A stretch of DNA of 64,000 nt from IMG/VR virus record IMGVR_UViG_3300023242_000006, positions 5,476 through 69,475 of that record. One strand, written 5' to 3'. The notes below the pieces were generated by a model. The model was not told the origin of the DNA. It saw only the letters and a program-made list of their open reading frames with translations, and did not search any database. The position numbers and the translations under genes are program-made. This stretch comes from a virus. Shown in pieces: positions 5,441 through 50,778 of this stretch. Numbering within the stretch: the first letter of the stretch is position 1; each line of letters opens with the position of its first letter.

Positions 5441-5671
5441 TTATTTTGTGTTGCATTTACAGTGTCCCGCATGTGTCATTGAAATTCCATCTCTAACTTT
5501 GGAATAGATATAAGTATGACCTTTGTAGTCAAACTCTTGTATGTCTTCAGCATGTGAAAAAGCACCATTGCTAATTCTTACAGTACCTTTTGTTGGCGTT
5601 TTTTGTTCTACATGAGTTGTTGTTTCACCACACCCAGTTAACCCTAATAGAATGAACAGAACCCAAACCAA
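5441..5671 (-). CDS. Putative lipoprotein
   Basis: Signal peptide with lipobox LGLTGC. Confidence 0.45.
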   Translation of the reverse strand: MVWVLFILLGLTGCGETTTHVEQKTPTKGTVRISNGAFSHAEDIQEFDYKGHTYIYSKVRDGISMTHAGHCKCNTK

Positions 5672-11778: not shown

Positions 11779-12006
11779 CTAACCGATGTATTTCCTGACA
11801 AAGTATTGGTCACGATTACAAAACTCCGTTCTATGAGAATTTAGACCATCCCCATAAGCATCTGTTATTTGTTCAGCCTCTGTAAGTAAAAGGCTTTTAG
11901 CTTCATTAATCGCAATATTTATCACTCTATGATACAAAGGGTCATTATCCCATTTTTCTTTGGCTCCTTCGAGCCTTTTTATTAGTTGATTTAACGGAGT
12001 TTCCAT
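11779..12006 (-). CDS. Hypothetical small protein
   Basis: ORF of 75 aa. Confidence 0.4.
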   Translation of the reverse strand: METPLNQLIKRLEGAKEKWDNDPLYHRVINIAINEAKSLLLTEAEQITDAYGDGLNSHRTEFCNRDQYFVRKYIG

Positions 12007-12131
12007 TTCGTTTTTAAATTAAATTTAGTGCTGATAATCCGCCCAGCACATAACAGCGTGTATAAAAAATGGCGTTCGTAATTAATTTTTAAAAACGATA
12101 AACTTGCTATATATGGTATTTATATGATAGC

Positions 12132-12380
12132 TTAACGCCACTTGGTACTAAATTGAATACCTCCTTTTGTTTTTCTGCCATTTTTATATTCTTTTACAAT
12201 TATTGTAGGTCTTTCTAATGCTCTGCCACTAAATCCAGAAAGCCTATTTTTATAATTTAATTTTTGAACCCTAATTGCTTCTTTTTCAATTTCTTCTTTT
12301 GTTGCATCATCATGTATATCGAAGTATTCCCAGCCGTAAGAAGATTGTCCAAAATTTTGTGTGATTTGAAATTTTTTCAT
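12132..12380 (-). CDS. Hypothetical small protein
   Basis: ORF of 82 aa. Confidence 0.4.
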   Translation of the reverse strand: MKKFQITQNFGQSSYGWEYFDIHDDATKEEIEKEAIRVQKLNYKNRLSGFSGRALERPTIIVKEYKNGRKTKGGIQFSTKWR

Positions 12381-12448
12381 AATTTTGTTTTTTAATTTTT
12401 AAAAACTATAAACTTGCTATATCTGGTAGTTATAGTGCATTAATTTGC

Positions 12449-12688
12449 CTAACTATCTGTATGCCATTTGTGGCAAGGCTCACATAAATTGTCTCGGTAT
12501 TCTTTTGTAGGTTTGTCACAATCTCGGCAAACAAACGGCACAATAACAACGGGTATAGTTAATTGCTCTCTTTTGCCTTTTAAATAAGCCTCTTCCATTG
12601 CATCAAGTACATCGTCCCTTAATCTACTTTGTTCATTAAACCCATCTGTCTCTTCTTGTAATATACTTAGTAAGTTTGTTCTTGTCAT
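12449..12688 (-). CDS. Cys-rich small protein
   Basis: CRDCDKPTKEYRDNLCEPCHKW. Confidence 0.4.
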   Translation of the reverse strand: MTRTNLLSILQEETDGFNEQSRLRDDVLDAMEEAYLKGKREQLTIPVVIVPFVCRDCDKPTKEYRDNLCEPCHKWHTDS

Positions 12689-12744
12689 TTTAATTTAATT
12701 TAGTGTTATTAATCCGCAACTAACCATACCCAAAGCGTTAGCAA

Positions 12745-12951
12745 CTATTTAAAATTTGCTTTATAATCAGTTGTATCTATTTTAATCAAGTGGTAAGCCT
12801 CACTTGTTTTTCCATTGCCTTCGAGTCTATACATTACTCCATCTGTATCTTTTACTATTTTACCGTCTTTTTCGTAAGTGCATCCTACTAAAAACACAGT
12901 TGCTAACAATGTATAAAATGCATAGCTTAATTTCGTTCTTAAATTTTTCAT
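12745..12951 (-). CDS. Putative lipoprotein
   Basis: Lipobox LVGCTY. Confidence 0.4.
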   Translation of the reverse strand: MKNLRTKLSYAFYTLLATVFLVGCTYEKDGKIVKDTDGVMYRLEGNGKTSEAYHLIKIDTTDYKANFK

Positions 12952-24928: not shown

Positions 24929-25136
24929 TTTTGGTTTGTGTTAATTATTATAATGCAAAGGTATATATAATAATTTAACCCACCAAATATTTTTATGAAT
25001 TTCTTTAATTTTTGGTGCAAAAAGTGTTTTCCTAAAACTTCGTATGTTACCATGCCACTAATTTTATTTGACAAAAAAAAAAACGAAACTTCAAAGAGAA
25101 ATCTCGTTTTTTTTTTGAAAAAAGTTTAGTTTAATT

Positions 25137-28100
25137 CTAATCTTTAATTATTTTTATTGTCCTTGTTTTTAATTTAACAAAATATACACCCTTAGTTAAA
25201 TTACCAAAGTAAATAGTGTTACCATCTTGTTTTACCTTGATACTTCTACCCAAAACGTCATAAACTTTTACTCTTATATCGTTAGTTTCTAAGTAAAGAA
25301 CATCTCTAACGGGGTTAGGATAGGCGTAAAATAAGTCTTCTTTAACTTCCACCACTTTAAGAGGCTCTTGATAAACCAATTGAAATCTACCATTAAATTC
25401 GCCAACTTCTGATGTAAATGTATGGGGTAGTGAGTGTAATACTCCGTTATCTTTTACGTATACATTTTGTATTCCTTGAATTGAATCTAGTGATATTGTA
25501 AAGGTTTCGGCAACTGCTGTAAAATAACCTAACCCAACAACATCATTAACGTCAAACTCACCTCTCGACTGTATTTTATTTAAGTTATCAGAGTCATCTA
25601 AAGAGTAAAATTTAATAGCTTTTCTTGGAGATGAATCAATGTAGTCCCACCCCTTCTGATAGTTTTTAGTTGTTTCAGAGCTGTAACCTATAAGTTGTTG
25701 AGAAAATAACCCTAACTCTGTTGTTAAATTTAACCAAACCCTTTTAATTGAATCTTGAGATGTTCTAAAGAATACTACACTCGTCGTATTATCAATAACT
25801 TTATCCATAAAACTAGGTCTGAATATCAAATCATTTTCTGTCTGAGCCTCAACTAAGAAACCTTGCCCGCTACCAATCGCTGATGTTGGTATCTTACTAG
25901 TAAACGTTGCTGTAGTTCCTATTGTACCAGAAGTAGCCGTTCCACCTAATAAATTGTAATACGCATAATCCGAGGTAGAAAAATTATTAGCTTGTAGCCC
26001 TGGGTAAGTTGTTAAAAAACTCCCCGTATGTGTCCAATATGCTAATGTTCCGCTAATATTTGCTAAGTTTTCATTAATAAAATCGTTAGCTTTAATTGAC
26101 GATGAATAGGGGTTTCCCACTAAATTAAAATCATCAATATTACTAGAACTATTACCACTTAATTTTAATGGATATACAATCACCCCCGTATTCAAATCTC
26201 CCGTAAATGTCACTAGCTCGCCTCTTGGGTAGGGTGGTGAATTTGGTATTGATTTTATCATAGATGCATATCCCTTTCCCGCAACCATACTGTCTGTTTG
26301 GCTAGATAGAGTCCAAGCAAAGGGAGCTTCATCATCTTGACCATCGGGGTCATCAGATTGAAATACTCCGTTAAGATGCGTTTTAGTATCTAAAAAATTT
26401 TCCGTTATAAATTCAAATGTATAGTTATTTTGCCACGCCCCTAATGCTTGACTTATTGTTGTATTTACAGAGCTAGACAAATATGTATAGTCATATCTTT
26501 TCATTTGGGTAGTTCTTCTCTGAACAGAAATATTTCCATTTGAAGTTGATGAATCATTTATTGGTATTAATTTTCCACCCGATTCCACTATAAGACTTCC
26601 AAGATTCTCAATGTGGTTCTGAACAGTTACAAAATCACCCGATTTTACAACTAGACTCCCATTAACAGTTAAATTACAACAATCGAAGCTACCATTTATA
26701 GAAGTGTCATAATTACCATTTATTACAGCATTTCTAGTCTGAGAGGGGAAACCACCAACCCAAGAAGTTCCATTCCAAGTTGATGTTAAATTACAAGTAG
26801 CTAGTGTAATATTCTGATTTAATATATTATATCCATTAACATTATCCCACAAGCCAACATTAGCAAATTGAATTGAGTAACCAAGGTTATTTTCTAAATT
26901 ATTATCCGCTATATGTAATAACAACTCATAAGTGTCATTAGGCAAATCATTAGGTATTGTAATTGTAAATGAGTTCGTTCCCTTGTTAAGTTCTCTAATA
27001 TCAAAATTAATTAAGCGTTTAGTATAAACAGTTCCTCTTTTAAAGACTAAATATAATTTCTTTTCGTATAAAATATTAGCGTACCCAACATTATCTACGT
27101 TTAAGGTAAGTTGATTACCAATAATACTACTTGAGCGAAGTACAAGCCTATACCCAAGGTTTTTAATAATGGTTTCATAGTGGTTAGAAGCAATCCAATT
27201 ATTCCAAGTTGGAATATGGTAGTCTCTATTTAAAGTTGTAAAATTAAGATTATTCATCTCAGTAATAGCGTTAGAACCACTTGTTCTAGGAGGATTAGAC
27301 CCGTTAGTTTCACCCGTCATTGGTAAATAGCGAGAAGTATTAGATATGAACGTGTAGTCGGACGAACCCACAGGATTAGTAAATTGACCGCTAACACTAT
27401 AAGTCCCCATATCTGCATAATAATTTAAAAAAGCATCGTTATAGAAACCAATTCTATCCCCTCCAAAATTAGTAGGTACAGAATTACCATACATTATTCT
27501 CTTAGCATTAGCATATCTAAGTTGTAGTGGTATGTCAATATGAAAGTTTGCTAACATTGAATCGACAACTTCCTTTCTATTAGCCCATTGCACGTTTGAT
27601 ATAGTACCCGCATGCCCAAATTCGGTAGAGCTTGTATAATACCATTCACCCCAAGTTCCTATAAAACCCGCTTGAATTGACATTACAACATCTTTATTTA
27701 AATTTACAACATTTGACAATTGAGAGATGTGGCTTAGTATTTGAGACTTAGCGGGTTGTTGTAAATTAGTGCCACTATAACAATTTGAATCACAATCATT
27801 AGTATAAGCAAATCTTATAATAACCTTTAATCCAGCATTGCGAATTCTGTCAAAATCTGTTTGCATATTGGTAATATAAGTTGATGTCAAAGCACCACTT
27901 GGTAAAATAAAATATCTGTATACGACAGTGACTCTATCGGTGGATGTGCGCCAATTAGTCAAAGTACTTTGAGATAGTTGATTATAGGAGAAAGAGGTGG
28001 CGGGGGAAAGTAAAGAGCCTGATATATTGATAGAATATTTTTGTAACCCCCTTTCAGGGTTTTCTATTATTGCAGTACTTTCGGTGTAATTTATGGTTTG

Positions 28101-28295
28101 GGATACCGCTACAAAATTGATGAATAATAACACCAAATATATTAAGTTTTTGCGTTTAACATTGATACCTTCTACTACATGATACCAACCAGATAACTCT
28201 CGGTCAACGTTATCTTCCTTTTCAGTCACATCTTTATAGTGTGATTCAATTTTGTCAAATTGATTAATGAAATCAACTAATTTTAATTTTTTCAT
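25137..28295 (-). CDS. Large secreted protein with T9SS (Por) C-terminal sorting domain
   Basis: C-terminus FYAYPNPVRDVLYLE...VKVYDVLGRSIKV....GVYFVKLKT matches the Bacteroidetes T9SS CTD pattern. The N-terminal 45 aa duplicate the N-terminus of gene 24551..24928 and are followed by a signal-peptide-like LIYLVLLFINFVAVSQ. Confidence 0.7.
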   Translation of the reverse strand: MKKLKLVDFINQFDKIESHYKDVTEKEDNVDRELSGWYHVVEGINVKRKNLIYLVLLFINFVAVSQTINYTESTAIIENPERGLQKYSINISGSLLSPATSFSYNQLSQSTLTNWRTSTDRVTVVYRYFILPSGALTSTYITNMQTDFDRIRNAGLKVIIRFAYTNDCDSNCYSGTNLQQPAKSQILSHISQLSNVVNLNKDVVMSIQAGFIGTWGEWYYTSSTEFGHAGTISNVQWANRKEVVDSMLANFHIDIPLQLRYANAKRIMYGNSVPTNFGGDRIGFYNDAFLNYYADMGTYSVSGQFTNPVGSSDYTFISNTSRYLPMTGETNGSNPPRTSGSNAITEMNNLNFTTLNRDYHIPTWNNWIASNHYETIIKNLGYRLVLRSSSIIGNQLTLNVDNVGYANILYEKKLYLVFKRGTVYTKRLINFDIRELNKGTNSFTITIPNDLPNDTYELLLHIADNNLENNLGYSIQFANVGLWDNVNGYNILNQNITLATCNLTSTWNGTSWVGGFPSQTRNAVINGNYDTSINGSFDCCNLTVNGSLVVKSGDFVTVQNHIENLGSLIVESGGKLIPINDSSTSNGNISVQRRTTQMKRYDYTYLSSSVNTTISQALGAWQNNYTFEFITENFLDTKTHLNGVFQSDDPDGQDDEAPFAWTLSSQTDSMVAGKGYASMIKSIPNSPPYPRGELVTFTGDLNTGVIVYPLKLSGNSSSNIDDFNLVGNPYSSSIKANDFINENLANISGTLAYWTHTGSFLTTYPGLQANNFSTSDYAYYNLLGGTATSGTIGTTATFTSKIPTSAIGSGQGFLVEAQTENDLIFRPSFMDKVIDNTTSVVFFRTSQDSIKRVWLNLTTELGLFSQQLIGYSSETTKNYQKGWDYIDSSPRKAIKFYSLDDSDNLNKIQSRGEFDVNDVVGLGYFTAVAETFTISLDSIQGIQNVYVKDNGVLHSLPHTFTSEVGEFNGRFQLVYQEPLKVVEVKEDLFYAYPNPVRDVLYLETNDIRVKVYDVLGRSIKVKQDGNTIYFGNLTKGVYFVKLKTRTIKIIKD

Positions 28296-28449
28296 TTTTG
28301 GTTTGTGTTAATTATTTTTATTAATTCATTGGGATTATTAAATTATTTGTATTACCTTTGTGTAACTTTCATAAAACCTGTGGTCTTACAACCACATATA
28401 TAAAGTCATGCACACTATACTCAATATAGTCTTCGAGTTTAGGTCTATA

Positions 28450-30433: not shown

Positions 30434-30877
30434 TTAATCAGTGTTTCTTTCTAAGTCTCTTTTTAAGTCTTTTTCTTTGATGGAGTGTTTTTTATCATAT
30501 AAGTGTTTACCTTTACCCAAACCAATGTTAACCTTGATAAACCCAGTGTTTGATACTATAATTTCAATAGGTACAATAGTCAACCCCTTTTGCGATAAAC
30601 TTTTATCTAACTTAAAGATTTCTTTTTTCTTCATAAGAAGCTTTCTATCTCTTAGCGGTAAATGATTGTTATGTTTACCACCTTCTTTGTGTTCAGCAAC
30701 GTGCATACCTTTAATAAACAACTCACCATTGGAGATGTAACAATAAGCCTCAACAATAGAAGCCTTACCATTCCTAATAGACTTAACCTCAGACCCAACC
30801 AAGACGATTCCCGATACAAAAGTTTCGATAATCTCATACTCAAATCTCGCTTTGCGATTAGTTAAAATAACTTTCAT
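30434..30877 (-). CDS. smpB: SsrA-binding protein SmpB
   Basis: MKVILTNRKARFEYEIIETFVSGIVLVGSEVKSIRNGKASIVEAYCYI is the canonical SmpB N-terminus. Start trimmed so that the promoter motif at 30886-30895 lies upstream. Confidence 0.8.
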   Translation of the reverse strand: MKVILTNRKARFEYEIIETFVSGIVLVGSEVKSIRNGKASIVEAYCYISNGELFIKGMHVAEHKEGGKHNNHLPLRDRKLLMKKKEIFKLDKSLSQKGLTIVPIEIIVSNTGFIKVNIGLGKGKHLYDKKHSIKEKDLKRDLERNTD

Positions 30878-30954
30878 AATATACAAAGGTACTAAATAAT
30901 TTCTAATTATACAATTTATTTACTTATTTAATTTTTATAACTATATTTATATTT

Positions 30955-31083
30955 ATGAAAACAGATACAACTAAACTCAACATCACCCTTCCAACAGAGT
31001 TAATTAAAAAAGTAAAAGAAGGTAATTATAACCGTACTCAGTTATTAGTTAGTCTTTTAAAAAATTATATTAACAAAAAGTAA
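30955..31083 (+). CDS. Ribbon-helix-helix (CopG/Arc-like) small protein
   Basis: MKTDTTKLNITLPTELIKKVKEG... Short basic protein. Confidence 0.4.
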   Translation: MKTDTTKLNITLPTELIKKVKEGNYNRTQLLVSLLKNYINKK

Positions 31084-31159
31084 AATAATTAAATTATTTT
31101 ACGGTTTTTTCACCGTTTTCATTGTTTCATGATATTTATATGTATACAAACAAAATATT

Positions 31160-31318
31160 ATGAAAAAAGACAAATTATCACCAAAAGAGAGAAAACAAAC
31201 CATAAGTATCCAGATTCCTAATGAATTAATAATTCATTTAGATGTAATTAATAATAAGAGTAAATTCTTCGAATGGTTATTAATTGAACATTTTAACACT
31301 TTAAAAAATGGAAAATAA
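31160..31318 (+). CDS. Ribbon-helix-helix-like small protein; overlaps the start of the downstream endonuclease gene
   Basis: ..KQTISIQIPNELIIHLD.. Its stop overlaps the ATG at 31308. Confidence 0.4.
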   Translation: MKKDKLSPKERKQTISIQIPNELIIHLDVINNKSKFFEWLLIEHFNTLKNGK

Positions 31319-32258
31319 AACTGAAAATTTTATTTCAAAAGCTAAATTAATACATGGTGATAAATATGATTATTCAAAAGTTAACTATATTAATAAAAGA
31401 ACTAACGTTAAAATAATTTGTTCTGAACATGGTGTTTTTGAACAATTAGTACATAACCATTTAAAAGGTAATGGTTGTATTAAATGTTCTGGAAAAGGTT
31501 TAACTAATGAAGAATTTATTAATAAATGTAATATAGTTCATAAAAATAAATTTAATTATTCATTGGTAGATTATAAAAATTGTTATGAAAAAATTAAAAT
31601 AATTTGCCCAATACATGATAAATTTGAACAAACACCAAGTTCTCATATTAGTGGTGTTGGTTGTTGGAAGTGTTTTAATGAGGATAGAACCACATCAAAT
31701 AATGAGTTCATATTAAAAGCCGAAAAAGTTCATAGCGATAAATATAATTATTCTAAAATTATTTATTTAAATAGTAAAGTTAATATCACAATTATTTGTC
31801 CAATACATGGTGACTTTGAACAAACACCTAATATGCATTTAAAAGGTTGTGGTTGCCGTAAATGTGGTTATATAACGGTGTCTAAAAAAGCAATTAATAA
31901 TTCACATAGTTTTTCACTATCAAGTTGGAAAAATATTATATCTAAAAACATAAAGGCTAAACCAATGTTATATATTATTAAATGTTATAATGATACTGAA
32001 GAATTCATTAAAATAGGTATAACAATAAACAACTTAAAAGGAAGATACCCTAGTAATAAACATATGCCTTATAAATATGATATAATATTAACACATGAAG
32101 CTGAACCAGAATTAGTGTTTAACATAGAAAAAGCGTTACACAGGTATTTTAAAAAAATTAAATACACCCCGACTATAAAATTCCATGGTATGGGTGAGTG
32201 TTATTATATAAAAGATAAACCAGAAATTTTAAACTATTGTAATAAACAATTAAATTAA
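31308..32258 (+). CDS. Putative homing endonuclease: three zinc-ribbon repeats plus a C-terminal T5orf172 (GIY-YIG-like) domain
   Basis: The repeat [10 protein letters not shown]..IICxxHGxFEQxPxxHLKGxGCxKC occurs three times. C-terminus [18 protein letters not shown].......YDIIL.HEA....[11 protein letters not shown]. It sits on the plus strand, opposite to all its neighbours. Confidence 0.6.
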
Positions 32259-32397
32259 TTTTCTTTAACTTCTGAACCCTGTAATTGAATACCAGCAGTA
32301 TATTTTTCTAGAATGAAATATTCAAAATATGCTTTCTTGTTAGAACAAATTTTATTCATTTTTTATGTGTTTTTAAATATAAAAGGTATTTAAATAG

Positions 32398-32471
32398 TGT
32401 CCACAACAGGAGTCGAACCTGTGACCTATCCCACATTGGGGGAGTGCTCTAACCAACTGAGCTATGTGGAC
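32398..32471 (-). tRNA. tRNA (74 nt) with textbook acceptor, D and T arms, and an anticodon loop CCAATGT that lacks U33
   Basis: Minus strand GTCCACA-TA-GCTCAGTTGGTTAGAGC-A-CTCCC-CCAATGT-GGGAT-AGGTC-ACAGGTTCGACTCCTGT-TGTGGAC-A. The anticodon would formally be AAU, so the identity is unresolved. Confidence 0.7.
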
Positions 32472-32521
32472 TAATTGGAGGCGTTGCTTTTACGGTTCGT
32501 TTCTCCATTATAAAAACTATT

Positions 32522-33337
32522 TTACTCTAAGTTCTTCAAAAGCACTGGTGCACCTACACCAAAATAATTATTTTGACCATAAATAGACTTTCCATGTTTT
32601 TTAAAGCCTTCTGCAATAATCCTTTCATTCTCTACACGTTGTAGTTCCAACATTTTAGGTTGAGATAGAATATCTTTAGTTTTCGCATCGTAGAGAGCAG
32701 ATTCAAAATCTCCTTTTGATTTAGCAATTCTTGCTGCCGCTAAATTCTTTTGCTCTTCCTCTTTTTTTGAAGCCAACTCATTCTTCCCTATTTGTACTGC
32801 TGTTTCCGTAGCTAGTTTAGATACTTCTAGTGGAATGTCCACATCAGTAATTCTCACACGCTTAAACTCCACAAAAAATTCTGGCAACTCTTGTTGTAAT
32901 ATCTTACTTAGCGCTTTTTCGGCCACACCTCTTTGGTGTCTGTTCAAGTCTGTTGCTGAATATTGTGGCACAACTTCTTTGGCTGCGGAAGATAAAGAAC
33001 TCTCAATTTTTATATTTACATCGTTTATCTTTGTGTGTAAATGTTGTAATTGGTTCGGATTCAGATTATAGTCTAAAGATAATTGAACTTTAGTTACCAT
33101 GTCGTTTTTATCATTAAACTCAAAAACCTTCACAATAGTATGCTCCCTAACATCATACTCGACCATCTCATCCCAAACCCAATGGAAACCTCCATTCATC
33201 CCCTCTGGGTAAATTTTATTCATGTTGGTCTCTCCACCCCAACTAACCTCGACTCCTTTATGTCCCGAATCGACAGTTGTACAACCTATTAACAACAATA
33301 ATGTTAATACACCTAATAAACCTAAAAATTTCTTCAT
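32522..33337 (-). CDS. SPFH/band-7 (prohibitin/HflC-like) lipoprotein
   Basis: Lipobox LLLIGCTT, then GHKGVEVSWGG..YD.R and a long coiled C-terminal region typical of SPFH. Confidence 0.6.
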   Translation of the reverse strand: MKKFLGLLGVLTLLLLIGCTTVDSGHKGVEVSWGGETNMNKIYPEGMNGGFHWVWDEMVEYDVREHTIVKVFEFNDKNDMVTKVQLSLDYNLNPNQLQHLHTKINDVNIKIESSLSSAAKEVVPQYSATDLNRHQRGVAEKALSKILQQELPEFFVEFKRVRITDVDIPLEVSKLATETAVQIGKNELASKKEEEQKNLAAARIAKSKGDFESALYDAKTKDILSQPKMLELQRVENERIIAEGFKKHGKSIYGQNNYFGVGAPVLLKNLE

Positions 33338-34073
33338 TTTACTTTTGTTTTGTTAATTTGTAAAAAAAATAATCTAATAATTTCCACATTAACGCAAGTG
33401 GTACGAAAATTGGCCATGTAATTGTAATCCCTACAATCTTCCAGAACGCCTGTGTATAAACCAAATCATCATAGCTGTCTCTACTCTCCATCTCACGAGA
33501 ATACTTTTTGTAAGAGAAATAGAACGCTAAAAACGTTGCGAATAAATAAATAAAAATCATACTAATCTTTTTTTCTTGTTCTTTTAATAAATACGTATGT
33601 CAACCAAAAGACATATACAACGGCAACGATTGCCAATAACCCTAATGCTCCTTTCATAATTTTGTTTTTGAGTTTTATAAAGGTCGCTCAAACCTATCTA
33701 ATTTTATTTTATAAAGGTAATACTAATTTTATTGTCACCCTAATTTTTTAGCTAAAAAAGAATAAAAATAGAATTTTATCAAGACATTATATATTATGCT
33801 ACCACGTATAAGTTAGGTTCACTATATAAAACTCTGTTTATTCTTTTAATTAAAATATTTCAGGTAACGGCATCCAAGCTATGACTTCATCATTAATAAA
33901 GTAGCCATCATCTGAAGACCACTCTTCAAAATCACTTCCGTCCATAAAACCTATATAACATACACCTATTTTAATATCCTTACCTTTGGTTAATACTAAC
34001 AACCTATCTGTTTTTTTCCCATCCCAATTACCTGTTTCCCAAGCGTTTGGTTTACCTCTGTTCCATCCCATAA

Positions 34074-34370
34074 TTATTTTCTTTTAATTGTTTTTCCATC
34101 TTTATTGTTGTTTTGTTTTAATACTTTTTTGTTTTTCTTTGGCCACATACCTTCACAGTTACTTCGTTCATCCCAACACCATCTAAGTGTTCTAGCAACA
34201 ACCACATTGGTTGAATGTACATCACAACCCGATTCCAATAGCTTGGCAAACTCTCTTGTTGCTCGTCTATCCATCTTATGAGTAACTGCCACCATAACGG
34301 CACCATCACATTTAGAACATGTAGCTACTTGAACCTTGACTTTACTTAAGTATTCTTCTTGATTTTCCAT
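34074..34370 (-). CDS. Hypothetical Cys-containing protein
   Basis: ORF of 98 aa. The promoter motif lies 2 nt upstream (34373-34382). Confidence 0.45.
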   Translation of the reverse strand: MENQEEYLSKVKVQVATCSKCDGAVMVAVTHKMDRRATREFAKLLESGCDVHSTNVVVARTLRWCWDERSNCEGMWPKKNKKVLKQNNNKDGKTIKRK

Positions 34371-34412
34371 GATACAAAGGTAGATATAAATTACTTTATA
34401 TCCTAATAAAAA

Positions 34413-35108
34413 TTAAAGTTTTTTTGCCGTGGGTATTAAATCGTTGATTTCTAGGTATTCACCAGTAGTACCAATTGTGTCAATACCAATAATATTATTG
34501 TTAATGGTTAGTTTTTTTAATGTAGAATGACCTACAACACAGGTAACCCCATCAATCATATCTTTATATAGAGATGGTATTCTAACCCATATAGGTGTTT
34601 GAGTAATATCATTACCAGATTGGTCAAAATTGTCACCCATAGTGAATCTAAAAGCGGATTTATTGTTAACAAATAATTGATTAATAGAATTTTCTAAATC
34701 GTTTAAGTTAATATCATAGAAACCAGCCCATGTTTTTGTCACACCAGCATGTGTAAACACATATTTGTCATAGACAAAACACATTTGAACCAGTCCATAG
34801 GTAACTGCTGGCTCTAATATTTCATTGATATCTGTGAATTTAAAAGGGTTAAACCCAGAATATTTTTCTTGGACATCTTTTAAGTAATGAAAATCATGGT
34901 TTCCTAGTAGTAAAACTACTTGGTCCATGTTATTTTTCTTAAATTCTAATAATTCTTTGAAGTTTTCTATCTGTTGGTCGACAGTAATATCGTAATGGGT
35001 ATCAAAATAGTCACCGATGAATATAATTTTGTCAACATCTTTCTCTTTTGCTACTATTTCTTTCCATAATACTCTTCCATGAGTATCACCTAGTGCTATA
35101 ATTCTCAT
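34413..35108 (-). CDS. Ser/Thr phosphatase-like metallophosphoesterase (PP-lambda/ApaH family)
   Basis: GDTHG..., IFIGDYFD, GNHD motifs. Confidence 0.75.
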   Translation of the reverse strand: MRIIALGDTHGRVLWKEIVAKEKDVDKIIFIGDYFDTHYDITVDQQIENFKELLEFKKNNMDQVVLLLGNHDFHYLKDVQEKYSGFNPFKFTDINEILEPAVTYGLVQMCFVYDKYVFTHAGVTKTWAGFYDINLNDLENSINQLFVNNKSAFRFTMGDNFDQSGNDITQTPIWVRIPSLYKDMIDGVTCVVGHSTLKKLTINNNIIGIDTIGTTGEYLEINDLIPTAKKL

Positions 35109-35123
35109 AATTTTACTAATTAG

Positions 35124-35225
35124 TGGTACATCGTATAGGAATCGAACCTATGTTACCGCAAGCGATTGGTACTTAATCTTCCGATGTGCTCTCATTTCGG
35201 CATTCTACCATTAAACTAACGATAT
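35124..35225 (-). tRNA. tRNA-like element A (encodes CCA; good T-arm; about 98 nt if the distal 5' acceptor strand is used, or a 60-nt minimal form)
   Basis: 3' end ..ATAGGTTCGATTCCTAT-ACGATGT-ACCA. Complementary 5' strands are ACATCGG at 35181-35187 or ATATCGT at 35219-35225. Confidence 0.45.
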
Positions 35226-35336
35226 GTTTGGTTATATTATATGGTGGTCTATCACCACAATGTTTTCAATAGTACTGTTTTATGTGTGCCTCACGTGATT
35301 ACTCACATCAATGTCGCTTTAATAATATAACCTAGA

Positions 35337-35408
35337 AACTCATACTGGATTCGAACCAGCGTCTGCGGGCTCAACGCCCACCATAGTGTCCACTCTACCA
35401 ATGAATCA
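35337..35408 (-). tRNA. tRNA (72 nt) with anticodon loop CGTTGAG (formally UUG, Gln-like, but G at position 33)
   Basis: GATTCAT-TG-GTAGAGTGGACACTAT-G-GTGGG-CGTTGAG-CCCGC-AGAC-GCTGGTTCGAATCCAGT-ATGAGTT-T. Confidence 0.55.
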
Positions 35409-35505
35409 ACTATCACTATGTCGCTCGGCAAAGTTAAACGTGATAGAAAGGATTATAACCGTCTGAAAGTTTGCCGACCTTCATGTTGCTATTCCCCAAT
35501 TTTGT

Positions 35506-35603
35506 GCGAGAGGGTGGACTCGAACCACCGACACCCAGTCCCTAGTTGTTCCCTTGTACTTCGGGCTAAAGACCTTAGCGTTTACCACTTCGCCACTCTC
35601 GCA
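35506..35603 (-). tRNA. tRNA-like element C (98 nt): perfect 7-bp acceptor stem GCGAGAG/CTCTCGC, 3-bp D-stem, good T-arm, but no canonical anticodon stem
   Basis: GCGAGAG-TG-GCGAAGTGGTAAACGC-...48 nt...-GGTGGTTCGAGTCCACC-CTCTCGC-A. Confidence 0.45.
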
Positions 35604-35931
35604 AATTACTAGTCTTTCCTAGTTGTCAGAGGTTTTCCCTTCTACCATCGGTTCTGGCACACATCACCGAAAACAAGCTTTGCCTTTGTAAACTTCGTCA
35701 CCGTAAAACTCTCTGGCCCCTCTTATTTGATGTTCTTGGTCAGTTAAGTATCTCAAAGCGCTAAGCTTTTTAACTAACCAAAAACCCACAAGAGATGTTT
35801 CGTTCAAATCCAGACCATCATGTTTCTACTGACTAATAACCTCACACTGAAAGCGTACCCCGTGTTATTGGTTTTCGACAAGAGGAAATAAGATACAAAT
35901 CTCCCCACTCTGCTGTTGATTTGTGGTTGGG

Positions 35932-36020
35932 AAAGGACTCGAACCTCTCTGTAGGGTGCTACCCGTGCCAACACCTTCCATCGGAATCGAACCGACCTTC
36001 TCCAAGCCAACCAAATTGAC
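35932..36020 (-). tRNA. tRNA-like element D (about 89 nt) containing two T-arm-like hairpins (GGTCGGTTCGATTCCGA and AGAGGTTCGAGTCCTTT)
   Basis: Acceptor GGTTGGC/CCCAACC with one mismatch. Confidence 0.35.
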
Positions 36021-36344
36021 TTTACTTTACAAAGTCTAAGTAGGTTTAGTTGCAGACTTTCAAAACCTATACGTCTATAGGTCTCCTTCTTCTGAGTGCT
36101 TCTTTTCACAGAGTTTACCTCTATTGGTATGTTATCCCAGTTTTCAACACAAAACCAATGTGTTAGCAATCGTGGGGAGAACGGGATTCGGACCCGCAAT
36201 CTCTAGGTTATGCCCCCAGCGAATAATTTTCTTTCTAAATGTTAGTAACCACCTCTTCAAGTTGTACACCTATCCGATTTTAATCTAACACGTTAAACAA
36301 AAGAAACTCCAATCATTCTTCCTCCCTAACGGTTTTTGTAGACA

Positions 36345-36445
36345 AGACTGAATTTGAATCAGTACCGCCAAGCTAGCCACGCTCGGATTGGGTGTTTAAT
36401 GAGATTTGCCCACACCTCCAGCCATTATTGTGTCTACTGATTTAA
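36345..36445 (-). tRNA. tRNA-like element G (101 nt): perfect acceptor GTAGACA/TGTCTAC, T-arm ACTGATTCAAATTCAGT
   Basis: Direct reading. The internal domain does not fold as a standard anticodon arm. Confidence 0.4.
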
Positions 36446-36992
36446 GATTCTCCTAGAACCACCGCTCCTACGAAGCCAGCTCAGTTTTTCCACCACTTGT
36501 CTAATATTTGCCATCTTCACAACACGATGAGTAGCGTACATGCACGAGGATATTTCACCTCTTTAGGAACTCGTACTCCCTACTATTTTCGGTCTAGCCG
36601 ACCAGCGCTACCTCTAATCAACAAACGCCATTTGTGTTTGACTATAGTGTCTGAACATACCAAGTTCATAAGTTTTGATTACATCTAAGCCGCTAAGCCT
36701 AATATCACGCACCAGACCTTACTGGTATCAGTGTGGTTAACACTACTTGTTGACTTTGAACAAATATTTTAATAAATCACATATCACCAAGAATGTATAA
36801 GTTATATAAGCCCAAACCCTCATACACCGCCTAGCTTAACACCCTTATAAAACTTTGCTCAAATTACCTTATGAGACTTACATTCTTTCTACAGTTAAGT
36901 TTACAACTTATCTTACTTAACAAACATAACACCTCTTGTAGTATTGTAACTAACTTATTACTTGTTTGTCTTTCTATATGTGATTAATATGA
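36446..36992 (-). ncRNA. Roughly 550-nt noncoding leader between the promoter motif at 36993-37002 and tRNA-like element G; no ORF
   Basis: The promoter motif is followed by no minus-strand ORF. The track ORF 36497..36688 (+) looks spurious. GC content is moderately raised. Confidence 0.35.
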
Positions 36993-39849: not shown

Positions 39850-41877
39850 CTATAATCGAATTATTGTTAAATTAATATTCTTTTTATCGATATCTACACT
39901 AGAAACTACAACGTGAACCATATCACCCAAACGAATCTTATCACCTGTGTTATACCCTTTAACACAATAGTTACTCATATCAACTTGATATGTATCACCA
40001 GAAATTTCAGATAACTTAATAAGTCCTTCGGCTTTGGAATCAATTAATTCAACGTATATTCCGTATTCAGTTAATGATGTGATTATACCTTTATTTACAG
40101 TACCTACTTTATCGTTTAAATAAACACAATACATGTATTTGATTGAGTCACGTTCAGCTTTCTGTGCTTTCTTTTCTCTTTCAGATAAATGAATACATCT
40201 AGTTTCTAACTTCTCTAACTTAGGTGTTGTTTTCTTGTTCTCATCCAAATACAAAGCTAACAATCTATGAACGATTACATCACTGTAACGTCTGATTGGA
40301 CTAGTAAAGTGTGAATAGTTAGCAAAACCTAAACCATAGTGACCAATGTTTTTTGTTGTATAGTTTGCTTTTTGCATTGTTCTGACAACTAAGTTATTAA
40401 CCATATCTTCTTCAGCAGTACCACGTATATCTATTAACAATTTGTTAAGGGATTTTGTTGTTTCTTCTGGGGTATCGATTTTAATATCGTAACCAAACTG
40501 AACAATAAAGTCTTTTAACGCTGCTAACTTTTCTTCGTTAGGTTTATCGTGTGCTCTATTCACGTTGGGTAAACCTTTCGTGTTGATGAACTGAGCTACG
40601 TGTTTATTCGCTAACAACATGTATTCTTCAATAAGTTTGTTTGAGTCTTTGGCAACCTTGAATATAATCCCAGTTGGTTTACTATTCTCATCCAATTTGA
40701 ATTTGACCTCTTGTTTATCAAATGATAAAGAACCTTTTATCAAACGAACTTTACGCATCTTTTTAGCTATCTTGTTCAACGCCAATACAGCATCGGCTAG
40801 TTTTCTAGCTGGGTCCCAACCTAATAACCTTAAACCAGTGTCTTCCAATAGTATTTTGGTTCTACCCTCAACATCGTCTTTAGGTAACCTACCCAATTCA
40901 ATGATAGCTTGCGCTTCTTCGTAGCTAAATCTGTGGTCAGAGTTAATTACGGTTCTACCGAACCATTCTTCTAACACATGACCATTGTGGTCTAACTTAA
41001 AGACAGCAGAAAAACATAATTTATCTTCATTAGGTCTTAACGAACATAACCCATTAGATAGGTTCTCTGGAAGCATAGGGACACATCTATCAACTAAGTA
41101 AACACTTGTACCTCTGGCAAAAGCTTCTTTATCTAATTCGCTATCTGGACGTAAGTAATGTGATACATCGGCAATATGAACGCCAACATACAACTCACCA
41201 TCAAGCCATTCCACGCTCAACGCATCGTCAAAGTCTTTGGCATCAGCTGGGTCAATTGTGAAGGTAAGTACATCACGCATATCTCTACGTTTATCAATTT
41301 CTTCTTGTGTAATTTCTGTAGAAATCAAATTGGCCTCCATAATTACATCTGTTTCGAAATAGTAAGGTAAACCATATTCTTCTAAAATACTATGTATCTC
41401 AGTTTCGTGTTCACCAGCATTACCTAGAATTCTGATAACTTCACCGTTAGGGTTTTTAGCACCTTCTTTCCATTCAGTTATACTTGCAATTACTTTTTGG
41501 CCTTCTGTAGCACCCATTGTCTTGTTTAATGGAATAAAAAAGTCAATTGGTAGTTTGTTGCTATCTGGAACAAAGAAAGCAAATTTAGCGCTTATTTGGA
41601 TTACACCAACAAACTCTGTTCTAAAACGCTCAACTACCTCAATTACTTTACCTTCAAGTGCACGACCTTGACCAACCATTACCTCAATTTTTACCTTATC
41701 CAAATGCAACGCATGGTTAGTGTTGGTTTTATGAACATAAATGTCTTTTGGTAAATTCTCACTCACCAAATATGCGGACCCACTTTGAGTCATTGAGATT
41801 CGCCCTTCTAGTATGTCACCAACATTAATTCTATTTATTTTTTTTTCTATCATTATTATTTTTTTACAAATATACAT
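39850..41877 (-). CDS. RNase R / RNase II family 3'-5' exoribonuclease
   Basis: 675 aa with N-terminal OB/cold-shock-like region, central RNB-like region and C-terminal S1-like domain (..GIITSLTEYGIYVEL..). The size is that of VacB/RNase R. Confidence 0.65.
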   Translation of the reverse strand: MYICKKIIMIEKKINRINVGDILEGRISMTQSGSAYLVSENLPKDIYVHKTNTNHALHLDKVKIEVMVGQGRALEGKVIEVVERFRTEFVGVIQISAKFAFFVPDSNKLPIDFFIPLNKTMGATEGQKVIASITEWKEGAKNPNGEVIRILGNAGEHETEIHSILEEYGLPYYFETDVIMEANLISTEITQEEIDKRRDMRDVLTFTIDPADAKDFDDALSVEWLDGELYVGVHIADVSHYLRPDSELDKEAFARGTSVYLVDRCVPMLPENLSNGLCSLRPNEDKLCFSAVFKLDHNGHVLEEWFGRTVINSDHRFSYEEAQAIIELGRLPKDDVEGRTKILLEDTGLRLLGWDPARKLADAVLALNKIAKKMRKVRLIKGSLSFDKQEVKFKLDENSKPTGIIFKVAKDSNKLIEEYMLLANKHVAQFINTKGLPNVNRAHDKPNEEKLAALKDFIVQFGYDIKIDTPEETTKSLNKLLIDIRGTAEEDMVNNLVVRTMQKANYTTKNIGHYGLGFANYSHFTSPIRRYSDVIVHRLLALYLDENKKTTPKLEKLETRCIHLSEREKKAQKAERDSIKYMYCVYLNDKVGTVNKGIITSLTEYGIYVELIDSKAEGLIKLSEISGDTYQVDMSNYCVKGYNTGDKIRLGDMVHVVVSSVDIDKKNINLTIIRL

Positions 41878-41964
41878 ATTAATATTTCAATAAACAATTT
41901 TTTTTTCATATAAATTTGTTTTTTTTTAAAAATTACTTATATTTATATATAGAAACTATATATT

Positions 41965-42126
41965 ATGAAAAAACAAGACAAACGAATTCTTCTAAATATT
42001 GATGGGGAATTAAAAACAGAATTTACAAAAAAATGTGATGATAACCATATGAAAATATCAGCCAGAATAAAATATTTAATTAGATTAGATGTAGAAAATA
42101 AAATAATTATTAAAAATGGAAACTAA
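41965..42126 (+). CDS. Ribbon-helix-helix (CopG/Arc-like) protein; overlaps the downstream HNH gene start by 11 nt
   Basis: ILLNIDGELKTEFTKKCDDNHMKISARIKYLI. Confidence 0.5.
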   Translation: MKKQDKRILLNIDGELKTEFTKKCDDNHMKISARIKYLIRLDVENKIIIKNGN

Positions 42127-42877
42127 AGTATGTAAAAAATGTTCAATAGATAAACCAATATCTAATTTTAGTGTAGCTAAAGATAATAGAGACGGTTTAA
42201 ATAATATATGTAAAAAATGTAAATGTGAATATAGTAAAAATTACACATTAAATAATTTTAATGAAATTTCAATAAAAAGAAAAAAATTTTATAATATTAA
42301 TAAAGATAGATTATTAAATCCAGAAACCTATGTTTTAATACATAATAAAATTTGTAGTGTTTGTAATGATGATAAAGCTATTTGTGAATTTAATAAAAAT
42401 AAAAAAAGTAATGATGGGTATAGAGCAGATTGTAAAATTTGTCAAGCTAAAAAAGGTAAAATATATCGGCTAAATAATGTTGATAAATTAAAACAATATC
42501 GTTTAGATAATAAAAATAATATAAACCAATATAGAAAAAATAAAAAACAAACTGATATTAATTATAAAATAACCTGTAATTTAAGAACTAGACTTTGGTC
42601 AGCTATTAAAAACGAATATAAATCTGGTTCAGCAGTAAGTGATTTAGGTTGTAGTATTGAATATTTTAAAAACTATATTGAATTAAAATTTGAAGATAAA
42701 ATGTCTTGGGATACTTGGGGTCGTGATACTTGGCATTTAGACCATGTAAAACCATTATCATCGTTTAATTTATCTAATAGGGAAGAATTTTTAATAGCTG
42801 TTAATTATAAAAACATTAAACCAATGTGGTGTAAAGATAATTTAAGTAAAGGTGGGGTGAAAAATGTTCATGCTTAG
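42116..42877 (+). CDS. HNH homing endonuclease
   Basis: Cys-rich N-terminus with C-terminal WHLDHVKPLSS...N...PMWCKDNLSKG. It lies on the plus strand amid minus-strand genes. Confidence 0.7.
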   Translation: METKVCKKCSIDKPISNFSVAKDNRDGLNNICKKCKCEYSKNYTLNNFNEISIKRKKFYNINKDRLLNPETYVLIHNKICSVCNDDKAICEFNKNKKSNDGYRADCKICQAKKGKIYRLNNVDKLKQYRLDNKNNINQYRKNKKQTDINYKITCNLRTRLWSAIKNEYKSGSAVSDLGCSIEYFKNYIELKFEDKMSWDTWGRDTWHLDHVKPLSSFNLSNREEFLIAVNYKNIKPMWCKDNLSKGGVKNVHA

Positions 42878-43841: not shown

Positions 43842-44486
43842 ATGACACTAGAAGAAAAAAAAGAAGCTAAAAGACTTTACGATATGGAATATCGTAAAAA
43901 AAATAAATTAAGAATATCAAAACAACAAAAAGCTAGATATAATGCTTTAAGTGACGAAGAACGTTTAATTATTAATAAAAATAAATACGAAAAATTAGAT
44001 AAAGAAAAAAAGAAAAAAAAAGATAAAGAATATGCTATTAAAAATAAAGAAAAATTAAATTTAAAAAAGAAATTATGGGGGTTAGAAAACCCAGAAAAAC
44101 ATAAAAAAGCTAAATATGATTATGTAAAGAAAATGATGAGTACTGATATTCTTTATAAACTAAAGAGATATGTTTCCGCATCAATAAATCAAAGTTTAAA
44201 GAAAAAAGGTTTTTATAAAAAATATAGGTCGTATGAAATACTTGGGTGTTCTTATGAAGAATTTAAAACCCATATCGAATCTAAGTTTGAACAATGGATG
44301 AATTGGGAAAATCGTGGTAATTGGAATGGGGTACCCAAAGAAATTAATACTGCTTGGGATATTGACCATATACTACCACTTAGTTCAGCAATGTGTGAAG
44401 AAGACGTTATTAAACTTAATCACTACACCAATCTACAACCACTTTGTAGTTATACTAATAGAAATATAAAAAGAGACCAATATTAA
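43842..44486 (+). CDS. HNH homing endonuclease
   Basis: C-terminus WDIDHILPLSSA....N.QPLCSYTNRNIK. Basic N-terminal region. Plus strand. Confidence 0.7.
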   Translation: MTLEEKKEAKRLYDMEYRKKNKLRISKQQKARYNALSDEERLIINKNKYEKLDKEKKKKKDKEYAIKNKEKLNLKKKLWGLENPEKHKKAKYDYVKKMMSTDILYKLKRYVSASINQSLKKKGFYKKYRSYEILGCSYEEFKTHIESKFEQWMNWENRGNWNGVPKEINTAWDIDHILPLSSAMCEEDVIKLNHYTNLQPLCSYTNRNIKRDQY

Positions 44487-49569: not shown

Positions 49570-50457
49570 TTAGCACAATTTGTCACTAATTTTTTCATTA
49601 TATCTAATAATAATTAAATTAATATTTTTGCTTTTACAATAATCTTTTTTAATTTTATCGTTAATTTGTTGTTGTTTAAATTTTATTATTCCACCAAAAT
49701 AATTAACTGGTTTGTAATGTTGAATACCGTTGAATTCAATACATATATTATAATCTGGTAAATAAAAATCAAATGGTAATAAATTAATATTTTTACAATC
49801 AGGAAATTTATATTGTCGTAAATATTTTATTTTTTTATTTTCTAATATATCTTTAATTTCAATTTCACCTTTTGATTCATTACATAAAGGACAACCATGT
49901 TTTCTGTTGATATGATGGTCTGGAGATTGTTCAAACTCACCATGCTCTGGACATATTATTTTAACCTTAATTTTATTATTTCTATAATTAACTTTTGAAT
50001 AATCATATTTATTATTATGTATTTTATCACCCTCTTCTATAAATGTTTCAATATTTTTATTATTATAAGTACAGTAAGTACAACCATGACCCTTTAAATG
50101 ATTACTTGGTGTTTGCTTGAATTCACCGTGGATTGAACAAATTATCTTTATTTCATTATGTGAACTGATATAATTAATATTTTTATAATCGAATTTATTA
50201 CCATGTATTTTAATCGCATCAAAAATAAATTTCTCGTTATTTTTAGTTAATTTATTTTTCATCTCTTCTCTTCCACATAATAAACAGCCTTTACCTTGTA
50301 TATGTGATTTTGGAGTCTGTTTAAATTCTCCATGTATCGGACAAATTATAACAACTTTTTGTGTTTGATTAATATAATCGACTAAACTATATTCATATTT
50401 ATTTGAATGTTTATTATTAGCTTTAATTTTAAAATTCTCTGTATTTGATGTACTCAT
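49570..50457 (-). CDS. Putative homing endonuclease: three zinc-ribbon repeats plus a C-terminal PD-(D/E)XK (Vsr/DUF559-like) nuclease domain
   Basis: Same KYDYS..IICPIHGEF.Q.P..H..G.GC..C repeats as 31308..32258. C-terminus FDFYLPDYNICIEFNGIQHY. Confidence 0.6.
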   Translation of the reverse strand: MSTSNTENFKIKANNKHSNKYEYSLVDYINQTQKVVIICPIHGEFKQTPKSHIQGKGCLLCGREEMKNKLTKNNEKFIFDAIKIHGNKFDYKNINYISSHNEIKIICSIHGEFKQTPSNHLKGHGCTYCTYNNKNIETFIEEGDKIHNNKYDYSKVNYRNNKIKVKIICPEHGEFEQSPDHHINRKHGCPLCNESKGEIEIKDILENKKIKYLRQYKFPDCKNINLLPFDFYLPDYNICIEFNGIQHYKPVNYFGGIIKFKQQQINDKIKKDYCKSKNINLIIIRYNEKISDKLC

Positions 50458-50523: not shown

Positions 50524-50778
50524 CTAAACGTCCATTTCAAATTTATTTATTAATAATAATTTATCATTTCTTTTTAACTTTTTAATTTTAATTTCTAACT
50601 TACTGGCTTCTGACCTATTTTGAACTCCCCAGAATGCTTTTAAAATAACTGGTAAACGATTTTTACAATATTTTGCACCCTTGCCTTTATTATGTGTTGT
50701 GATTCGTTTATTTACATCAGTTGTTATACCAGTGTAAACAGTACCATCGTTGCATTCCACCAAATAAACATACCACAT
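50524..50778 (-). CDS. GIY-YIG nuclease (small YhbQ-like)
   Basis: MWYVYLVECNDGTVYTGITTDVNKRITTHNKGKGAKY. Confidence 0.7.
   Translation of the reverse strand: MWYVYLVECNDGTVYTGITTDVNKRITTHNKGKGAKYCKNRLPVILKAFWGVQNRSEASKLEIKIKKLKRNDKLLLINKFEMDV

Follow-up and report, generated by a model that had tools for sequence, protein, structure and literature searches.

Mobile endonuclease open reading frames (mORFs) of fungal mitochondria turn the genes they enter into hybrids, as described for atp6 in Allomyces and for atp6, atp9, cox2 and nad3 in Glomus (PMC3630166). The endonuclease gene carries a foreign end of the interrupted gene, in frame with the resident core, and the displaced native end stays nearby and is closer to relatives than the inserted end. 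Both features recur in two cassettes that we describe here from a virus, in positions 5,476 to 69,475 of IMG/VR record IMGVR_UViG_3300023242_000006 (the window; 64,000 nucleotides). Cassette 1 interrupts smpB and cassette 2 interrupts rnr, the gene for RNase R; each combines a nuclease gene with one or two small genes for ribbon-helix-helix (RHH)-like proteins. Whereas mORFs replace the 3ʹ end of their target and typically have the nuclease on the same strand, the window cassettes replace the 5ʹ end together with its promoter, their nucleases lie on the opposite strand behind a promoter of their own and the RHH-like genes, and the host is a phage.

The pairing of a small gene with a homing nuclease is itself not new, since it was described in one paragraph of a 2025 study of moraphages, aquatic jumbo phages with predicted Bacteroidota hosts (PMC12619734). 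There, CcdA/HicB-like antitoxin genes are paired with PacI-like homing nucleases; the nuclease is multi-copy and putative, and a regulatory role was suggested for the small gene. The likeness to our cassettes lies in the module, a small antitoxin-annotated gene with a homing nuclease; anatomy, mobility evidence and a conservation test are lacking from that report, and it mentions neither gene-end replacement nor nucleases of other families nor RHH genes in tandem. T5orf172 homing endonucleases of ICP1 and other phages have repeated zinc-finger domains of the CapR/DUF723/DUF4379 type as their DNA-binding part (PMC10448857). Like the nuclease of cassette 1, whose zinc-ribbon repeats are probably of this kind, they have a C-terminal T5orf172 domain and lie in or beside conserved genes, at sequence-exchange boundaries; a separate regulator gene and gene-start replacement are not described there. 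Free-standing homing nucleases also enter coding sequence without an intron, with host-gene function kept, in genes-in-pieces or fractured genes (Aeh1 nrdA/mobE, PMC3045599; split inteins, PMC2677866). Those genes are split into two functional pieces, whereas the window cassettes replace one piece and discard the other. Our literature search found no phage report of gene-end or gene-start replacement, which is not proof of absence. What is added here is evidence of mobility, a two-tier RHH module common to three nuclease folds, and an architecture of gene-start replacement.

Phage P22 has two RHH repressors, in arc-ant and mnt, and one of them is the first gene of the operon that it controls. 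The Arc protein of IS605-family transposons, a repressor of ~50 residues with the RHH fold, binds the promoter of its element and restrains neighbouring genes (bioRxiv 10.64898/2026.09.24.754181). The idea of a small RHH repressor is similar to the role that we propose for the window genes; the nuclease types and the elements differ. In T4, I-TevI represses its own transcription, and homing nucleases are translationally coupled (PMC2988022). Repression at the nuclease's own promoter and overlap with an upstream reading frame hold expression down there, as we propose here, but the T4 repressor is the nuclease's own DNA-binding domain, whereas we propose a dedicated small protein.

Comparison with relatives indicates that both window cassettes are mobile, because the site of cassette 2 is empty in a close relative, cassette 1 is almost unchanged between genomes with diverged flanks, both have lower GC content than their surroundings (~0.18–0.27 in the cassettes versus ~0.29–0.38 in the flanks), and RHH genes stand beside nucleases at other loci. 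The two loci that carry much of this comparison, L001 and L007, are on one IMG/VR contig that is 93–99% identical to the window. Cassette 1 has the following features (window coordinates, strand, description).

30786..32278, unit as a whole: cassette 1 mobile unit, 1 mismatch in 1493 bp against L001, flanks ~7% different
30434..30877, minus: intact chimeric smpB, ATG at 30877; Pfam SmpB at 2.2e-52; split identities, with codons 1–32 foreign and the remainder resident
30782..30877, minus: replacement smpB codons 1–32, cassette-borne, GSEVK codons recoded at wobble positions relative to the stub
30882..30891, minus: TACCTTTGTA promoter-type motif of the replaced smpB, within the mobile block, 6 nt separating the end of its TAnnTTTG core from the ATG
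30919..30952, plus: sigma-70-like TTTACT-N17-TATATT with ATATTTATAT copy 1 in it, its end 7 nt upstream of the RHH1 ATG
30955..31083, plus: RHH1, a 42-residue mini RHH-like gene, supported by the ratio of nonsynonymous to synonymous substitution rates (dN/dS) and by relatives in L064 and L066
31101..31116, plus: terminator-like hairpin and T-run between RHH1 and RHH2, kept in L058, L059 and L062
31132..31141, plus: ATATTTATAT copy 2, upstream of RHH2, from a motif search
31160..31318, plus: RHH2, a 52-residue RHH-like gene overlapping the HEG1 ATG (31308) by 11 nt, ATGGAAAATAA
31308..32258, plus: HEG1, three zinc-ribbon repeats and a T5orf172 (GIY-YIG superfamily) nuclease domain, from Pfam and PHROG
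32255..32359, minus: smpB 5ʹ stub, an open reading frame of 34 codons and a stop; native N-terminus with homology over 32264..32359; Pfam SmpB at 2.6e-10

Cassette 1 is present in L001 as a near-identical block between flanks with ~7 mismatches per 100 bp, and the ends of this block are the GSEVK codons of the two smpB copies. The stub ends GSEVK|EN*, its stop overlapping that of HEG1, and the complete smpB begins at the opposite side of the cassette, within the block. The N-terminus encoded by the stub is 81%, 75% and 72% identical to those of the cassette-free L016, L025 and L002, as against 59%, 53% and 53% for the N-terminus in use. The latter is closer to two distant relatives, L003 and L004 (68% and 63%), than the gene body is (48% and 39%). 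The split identities and the block ends therefore indicate that the smpB in use is a hybrid whose first 31–32 codons and TACCTTTGTA promoter arrived with the cassette.

On the minus strand, the native upstream region of the stub (32360..32396) retains a TACCTTTTAT box which, if active, would drive antisense transcription across the whole cassette into the rebuilt smpB. The adjoining region 32375..35104 encodes a tRNA-Ile, an SPFH/Band 7 protein and a metallophosphatase. Its place in L001 (4003..4510) is taken by a stretch of 508 bp in which a degenerate piece of T5orf172 sequence, with 40% identity to residues 243–299 of HEG1, adjoins the smpB stub.

Cassette 2 is smaller and has a single RHH-like gene.

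41785..42865, unit as a whole: cassette 2 insertion, missing in the close relative L007, 94–99% identical, which has 'agc' there instead
41785..41853, minus: replacement rnr N-terminal codons (~23), MIEKKINRINVGDILEGRISMTQ, joined in frame to resident rnr 39850..41784
41867..41874, minus: TATATTTG (TAnnTTTG-type) box upstream of the replaced rnr start, read from the sequence
41939..41962, plus: ATATTTATAT copy 3 and the palindrome TATATAG-AAA-CTATATA (41946..41962), a candidate RHH3 operator
41965..42126, plus: RHH3, a 53-residue Arc-like gene overlapping the HNH2 ATG (42116) by 11 nt, ATGGAAACTAA
42116..42877, plus: HNH2, two Cys-rich N-terminal modules and an HNH nuclease domain, from a PHROG match and motif residues
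42866..42910, minus: rnr 5ʹ stub, native codons 1–15, MIKINDILEGRLSMN, then out-of-context sequence

In L007, rnr is uninterrupted and starts MIKINDILEGRLSMNASGSAY, three bases taking the place of the whole insertion. The stub in the window is the native N-terminus of L007 and lies antisense to the last codons of HNH2, and the cassette-borne N-terminus differs from the native one, is recoded, and has its own TAnnTTTG box. A reading of this DNA made from its letters alone (the sequence-only reading) had proposed a mobile cassette of a small DNA-binding-type gene and a nuclease. The comparison of cassette-containing and cassette-free alleles that it suggested bears this out, cassette 2 being precisely missing from the L007 rnr. 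The RHH/nuclease unit that it described is real, but the cassettes are larger: they add a promoter and the first 31–32 smpB codons (~23 for rnr) on the opposite strand, sit inside the target gene, and leave a 5ʹ stub.

The nuclease assignments of that reading are also upheld. Against Pfam T5orf172, residues 221–287 of HEG1 reach 28.2 bits, above the cut-off of 20, and HEG1 matches PHROG 681 ‘endonuclease’ at 2.8e-57. Its three internal repeats have CxxC pairs and fall below the Pfam cut-offs (DUF4379, 19.3 versus 24.5; DUF723, 11.6 versus 20.9), and in DNA comparisons the region that encodes them is similar to endonuclease genes from other jumbo phages. HNH2 has no Pfam HNH match; it matches PHROG ‘endonuclease VII’ at 2.2e-21, and its DH...N...N motif (W-x-(L/I)-D-H, N, N-(L/I)-(K/Q)-P...N) is invariant in HNH2, HNH3 and five relatives. 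Neither HEG1 nor HNH2 has a solved-structure relative detectable by sequence. No methyltransferase gene, as expected of a restriction-modification system with a C protein, lies in or adjoins either cassette. Rfam detected no intron in the window, and each nuclease lies on the strand opposite to the interrupted gene, which does not fit an intron or intein.

The arrangement recurs in relatives. An RHH3-type/HNH cassette with a stub interrupts prs in L057, an RHH/T5orf172 cassette with a stub lies at smpB codon ~11 in L059, and the rnr arrangement recurs in L054. Versions that replace a 3ʹ end are found in the metallophosphatase gene of L059 and, without an RHH gene, in a sigma-factor gene of L023. 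An automated stub screen extended cassette starts through spurious open reading frames and missed known cases, and its counts are no estimate of frequency. RHH3 has 14 close homologs, always directly upstream of an HNH gene; the HNH genes behind RHH3-type genes are of two variants, and the loci concerned are rnr, prs and one more. The RHH1-RHH2 pair precedes T5orf172 (window), GIY-YIG (L058, L059) and HNH (L062, L064, L066) nucleases, at smpB, at the metallophosphatase gene, and beside RNA and DNA ligase genes. The order of this front end is a sigma-70-like element, RHH1, a hairpin terminator, a second ATATTTAT element, and RHH2 abutting or overlapping the nuclease start. The RHH genes are thus conserved in homologous cassettes, the sequence-only reading having named their absence there as evidence against it. 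RHH1 as the leftover of an older cassette was considered and rejected, since the RHH1-terminator-RHH2 layout is kept in L058, L059 and L062; in L064 and L066, too, the nuclease gene has a tandem of two small RHH-like genes in front of it.

The RHH/nuclease joint ...AATGGAAA(A/C)TAA (KNGK*/MENK) occurs at 31304..31322, at 42112..42130, at ~7750..7765 in L018 and at ~2645..2665 in L064. It is found in cassettes whose nucleases are unrelated and whose RHH genes belong to different families, and modules may be exchanged by recombination at this joint. Distant relatives (L029-L052, ~12000..12950, minus relative to rnr) have an HNH nuclease of 225–248 residues with a gene of 45–49 residues ahead of it. 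That gene encodes not an RHH protein but a helix-turn-helix one of the MerR/excisionase type (Pfam HTH_17 and MerR at 0.001); a DNA-binding protein of another fold stands in this position. On an 80.8-kb ENA contig (o2HU9zRi, sample ERZ1426827), several mobile elements are clustered: ~1.5 kb separates an RHH3-type/HNH cassette from a TnpA/TnpB pair of the IS605 type, and 1.8 kb further on is another pair, made up of a small open reading frame and a 220-residue one.

The three small open reading frames of the window are real genes under purifying selection, judging from dN/dS values of 0.03–0.45 among homologs down to 56% identity that keep full-length frames. RHH2 and RHH3 overlap the nuclease start, as the sequence-only reading stated for the small genes, but RHH1 overlaps no gene and is a separate unit with the hairpin and T-run behind it. 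The same reading called all three RHH proteins. Their best matches are indeed RHH proteins, but all are below threshold. On Pfam, the best matches of RHH1 are DUF6364 (0.016) and CcdA (0.15), and RHH2 and RHH3 have none; RHH proteins of relatives match RHH_1, RHH_3, Omega, ParG, RelB and CcdA, all below the Pfam cut-offs. RHH3 matches PHROG ‘Arc-like repressor’ at 3.3e-4 and 1.5e-4, and its relatives match Arc-like PHROGs too. Profiles of RHH1, RHH2 and RHH3 found nothing significant among solved structures before the RHH2 family was deepened. A profile of the RHH2 family matches 54 cluster representatives, all of ~50 residues, and the top solved matches of the deepened profile (55 sequences) are CopG (E 0.04, full length), a TCP domain, NikR and CcdA, individually marginal. 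With hhalign, RHH3 aligns with its L059 counterpart at 85.6% probability, and this counterpart matches seven RHH Pfam families; the RHH3 family showed no relationship to the RHH1 or RHH2 families, and we therefore do not claim mutual homology of the three window genes. These matches make an RHH fold probable for the small proteins; the AlphaFold models described below are no more than suggestive.

The promoter-like elements of the cassettes go with nuclease genes, whether or not these have an RHH partner. As the sequence-only reading noted, an AT-rich element different from TACCTTTGTA lies upstream of the small genes: ATATTTATAT has only three copies in the 64 kb, both strands counted, all on the plus strand and ending 3, 19 and 17 nt before the ATGs of the small open reading frames. 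Such a count alone could arise by chance, since 3 was attained in 19 of 100 shuffles; the placement exceeds what chance would give. The sigma-70-like element of RHH1 is kept as TTGAC(A/T)-N17-TATATT in L058, L059 and L064. ATATTTATAT was considered as an RHH operator and rejected, because the same element stands ahead of HNH3 and HEG4, which have no RHH gene, and ahead of many nucleases in relatives. Since ATATTTAT is likewise found in front of the nuclease genes at 43842 and 50457, which have no RHH partner, the promoter class that had been ascribed to the cassettes is better described as that of nuclease units; it is not specific to RHH genes. The palindromes behind the ATATTTAT element are operator candidates only. 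TATATAG-AAA-CTATATA is found in most RHH3 cassettes, and TTGTATATACAA takes its place in the divergent L018. The gap to the ATG is short at smpB and at RHH1, where the sigma-70-like element has the same geometry, and this suggests leaderless transcripts.

What would such an arrangement do? We propose that the cassettes are free-standing homing-endonuclease units that invade coding sequence by replacing a gene end, with the RHH genes acting as a portable transcriptional brake. In one arm of each cassette, a promoter is succeeded by one or two mini-RHH genes, the last of which overlaps the start of the nuclease gene. The divergent arm, on the other strand, supplies a promoter and a foreign copy of the first codons of the interrupted gene, recoded in nucleotides. 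The target gene is rebuilt as an intact hybrid, and its native 5ʹ end remains as a dead stub directly against the stop codon of the nuclease gene. Alleles without a cassette are presumably cut by the nuclease where the junction would lie, at smpB codons ~31–33 (GSEVK|S) and rnr codons ~15–17, and the cassette would be copied during repair, with homology provided on one side by the stub and on the other by the gene body. Because the target site is restored at neither junction of a cassette-bearing genome, such a genome should itself escape cutting. Of the small proteins, RHH2 and RHH3 would most likely serve as Arc-like autorepressors, co-transcribed and translationally coupled with the nuclease, with RHH1 as a second repressor transcribed separately; jointly they would keep down the expression of the nuclease from the promoter that the cassette carries.

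We regard this as the best explanation overall and hold it with fair confidence. Several points weigh against it. The cleavage sites at smpB and rnr were deduced from the junctions alone. The proposed operator palindromes are short and of a kind common in AT-rich DNA, and the ATATTTAT element is shared with nucleases that have no RHH gene. No curated RHH threshold is reached, and RHH1 and the window RHH2 have no significant match as single sequences. The AlphaFold monomers are of moderate confidence (pLDDT 74–77) and show two helices and no beta-strand: RHH2 is extended at 11–20 with helices at 21–29 and 33–49 (pLDDT 76.5), and RHH3 has helices at 14–26 and 31–43 with its N-terminus modelled as helix. 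Foldseek found no significant match for either monomer model.

An RHH protein could instead bind and neutralise its nuclease as in a toxin-antitoxin pair, with addiction or protection of the carrier genome as the outcome. The small gene does come first with an overlapping reading frame, there are weak matches to the antitoxin-type RHH families CcdA, RelB and HicB-like, and comparable genes were labelled CcdA/HicB-like antitoxins (PMC12619734). However, type II antitoxins have a toxin-binding extension and one cognate toxin family, and the window proteins have neither: at 42–54 residues they hold little beyond the RHH core, leaving no room for a toxin-binding tail, and the same RHH1-RHH2 pair accompanies three unrelated nuclease folds, which is unexpected for a specific protein-protein inhibitor. 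Many nucleases of the same families, moreover, have no partner at all. We consider this function unlikely.

Comparably unlikely is that the RHH proteins mainly regulate the divergent rebuilt gene, smpB or rnr, making up for its lost native transcriptional context. The back-to-back promoters, in an intergenic region of 77 bp in cassette 1 and ~110 bp in cassette 2, would suit such a role. Yet the 3ʹ-end-replacement cassette of L059 has RHH1 and RHH2 without a divergent host-gene promoter, and in cassette 1 the smpB box lies ~50 bp from the -10-like element.

We give little weight to the small genes being cargo that benefits the phage, for example antitoxin mimics directed against host toxin-antitoxin defences, which would offset the cost of the nuclease without regulating it. 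This alternative was offered for the moraphage genes (PMC12619734), and purifying selection suits any protein function. It leaves unexplained the tight start-stop overlap with the nuclease, the two-tier layout of promoters and terminator, and the exclusive linkage to nucleases in every context examined.

The sequence-only reading had also suggested that the RHH protein might target the endonuclease, as a trans-acting DNA-recognition subunit that guides it to the homing site. Sequence-specific DNA binding is typical of RHH proteins, and a fixed stoichiometry would result from translational coupling. However, a single RHH family is found in different target genes, both for the RHH3 type and for the RHH1/RHH2 type, and the nucleases have putative DNA-binding modules of their own, such as the three zinc-ribbon repeats of HEG1 (compare PMC10448857). 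We therefore think targeting improbable. One RHH module with unrelated nucleases at different targets argues against both a targeting subunit and a specific antitoxin, and for regulation at the level of DNA; control of the nuclease, the other role that had been suggested, is the better reading of these associations. Lastly, that the small open reading frames are chance products of an AT-rich leader, with the nuclease alone functional, is scarcely credible: they are very short and some have no family match, but the dN/dS values, the kept frames and the breadth of the RHH2 profile contradict it.

If the cassettes enter genes by end replacement, they represent a third route by which a free-standing homing nuclease can reside inside phage coding sequence, besides introns or inteins and gene splitting: it brings its own copy of the gene end. 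This would account for short pseudogene stubs and chimeric N-termini in metagenomes of jumbo phages, where gene-calling programs will annotate them wrongly. Gene-end replacement also marks the exact recombination joints. The predicted recognition site in smpB, reconstructed from the stub and the resident gene body, is ...GGTTCAGAAGTTAAA|TCTATT..., and that in rnr, read from the empty site of L007, is ...CTAAGCATGAAC|GCTAGTGGGTCC.... If the mini-RHH pair is indeed a portable repressor for three nuclease folds, it would be a compact and transferable off-switch for site-specific nucleases. More tentatively, it is possible that the front end (promoter, RHH1, terminator, promoter, RHH2 and the opening nuclease codons MENK, ATGGAAAATAA) is standardised and exchangeable, fitting any nuclease fold, and that with the divergent promoter and recoded start it lets free-standing nucleases enter essential genes without introns or inteins. 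On this view the interrupted gene would also have come to rely on the cassette for a start codon and a promoter, and a simple deletion of the cassette would hence carry a cost for the phage.

The window itself derives from an uncultured jumbo phage, probably with a Bacteroidota host. This follows from its strand and gene content, its promoter motif, the size of its relatives and its nearest deposited matches. Nearly all transcription is on the minus strand, and the products encoded include SmpB, a sigma-70-family factor, RNase R and several tRNAs. The plus strand, described in the sequence-only reading as otherwise empty, is nearly so; the only gene on it outside the two cassettes is the RHH-less HNH gene at 43842..44486. 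The minus strand has 20 exact copies of TACCTTTGTA, as against ~10 expected even with one mismatch allowed, and we take this motif to contain the Bacteroidetes TAnnTTTG promoter box. In IMG/VR, relatives are found on contigs that reach 368 kb. Among deposited phages there is no close relative: the nearest are uncultured huge phages, with 51% identity in the best RNase R match, DNA-level matches to deposited phages are limited to the nuclease repeats, and RHH3 has no tblastn match. A gene at 25004..28307 encodes a 1052-residue protein with DUF4874, DUF4832 and a type IX secretion sorting domain. It is missing from L001 and is therefore an accessory gene; the sorting domain supports a Bacteroidota host.

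A search for a transfer-messenger RNA near smpB found none. The tRNA-Ile at 32397..32471 (minus) has the unusual anticodon AAT, and two further tRNA matches, at 35127..35225 and 35505..35602 (minus), are 98–99 nt long. ARAGORN made no call at the first, and at 35504..35602 it gave a tRNA whose type it left undetermined, the anticodon having four bases, ‘gccc’; introns or an odd anticodon loop could be the cause of the length. The region 35200..36800 has a GC content of ~0.43 and few open reading frames. HNH3 (43842..44486, plus; 214 residues) has no RHH gene, and a ATATTTATA element lies 14 nt upstream of its ATG; its position is the same in L007 (98% amino-acid identity) and L011 (55%), and no stub was seen. 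A fourth nuclease-like gene, at 49570..50457 (minus), is on the main strand. It has zinc-ribbon repeats as in HEG1 (Pfam DUF4379 at 8.8e-11) with a different C-terminal domain, and it is preceded by a ATATTTATA element and by a stand-alone 84-residue GIY-YIG protein at 50524..50778 (minus; Pfam 3.7e-16).

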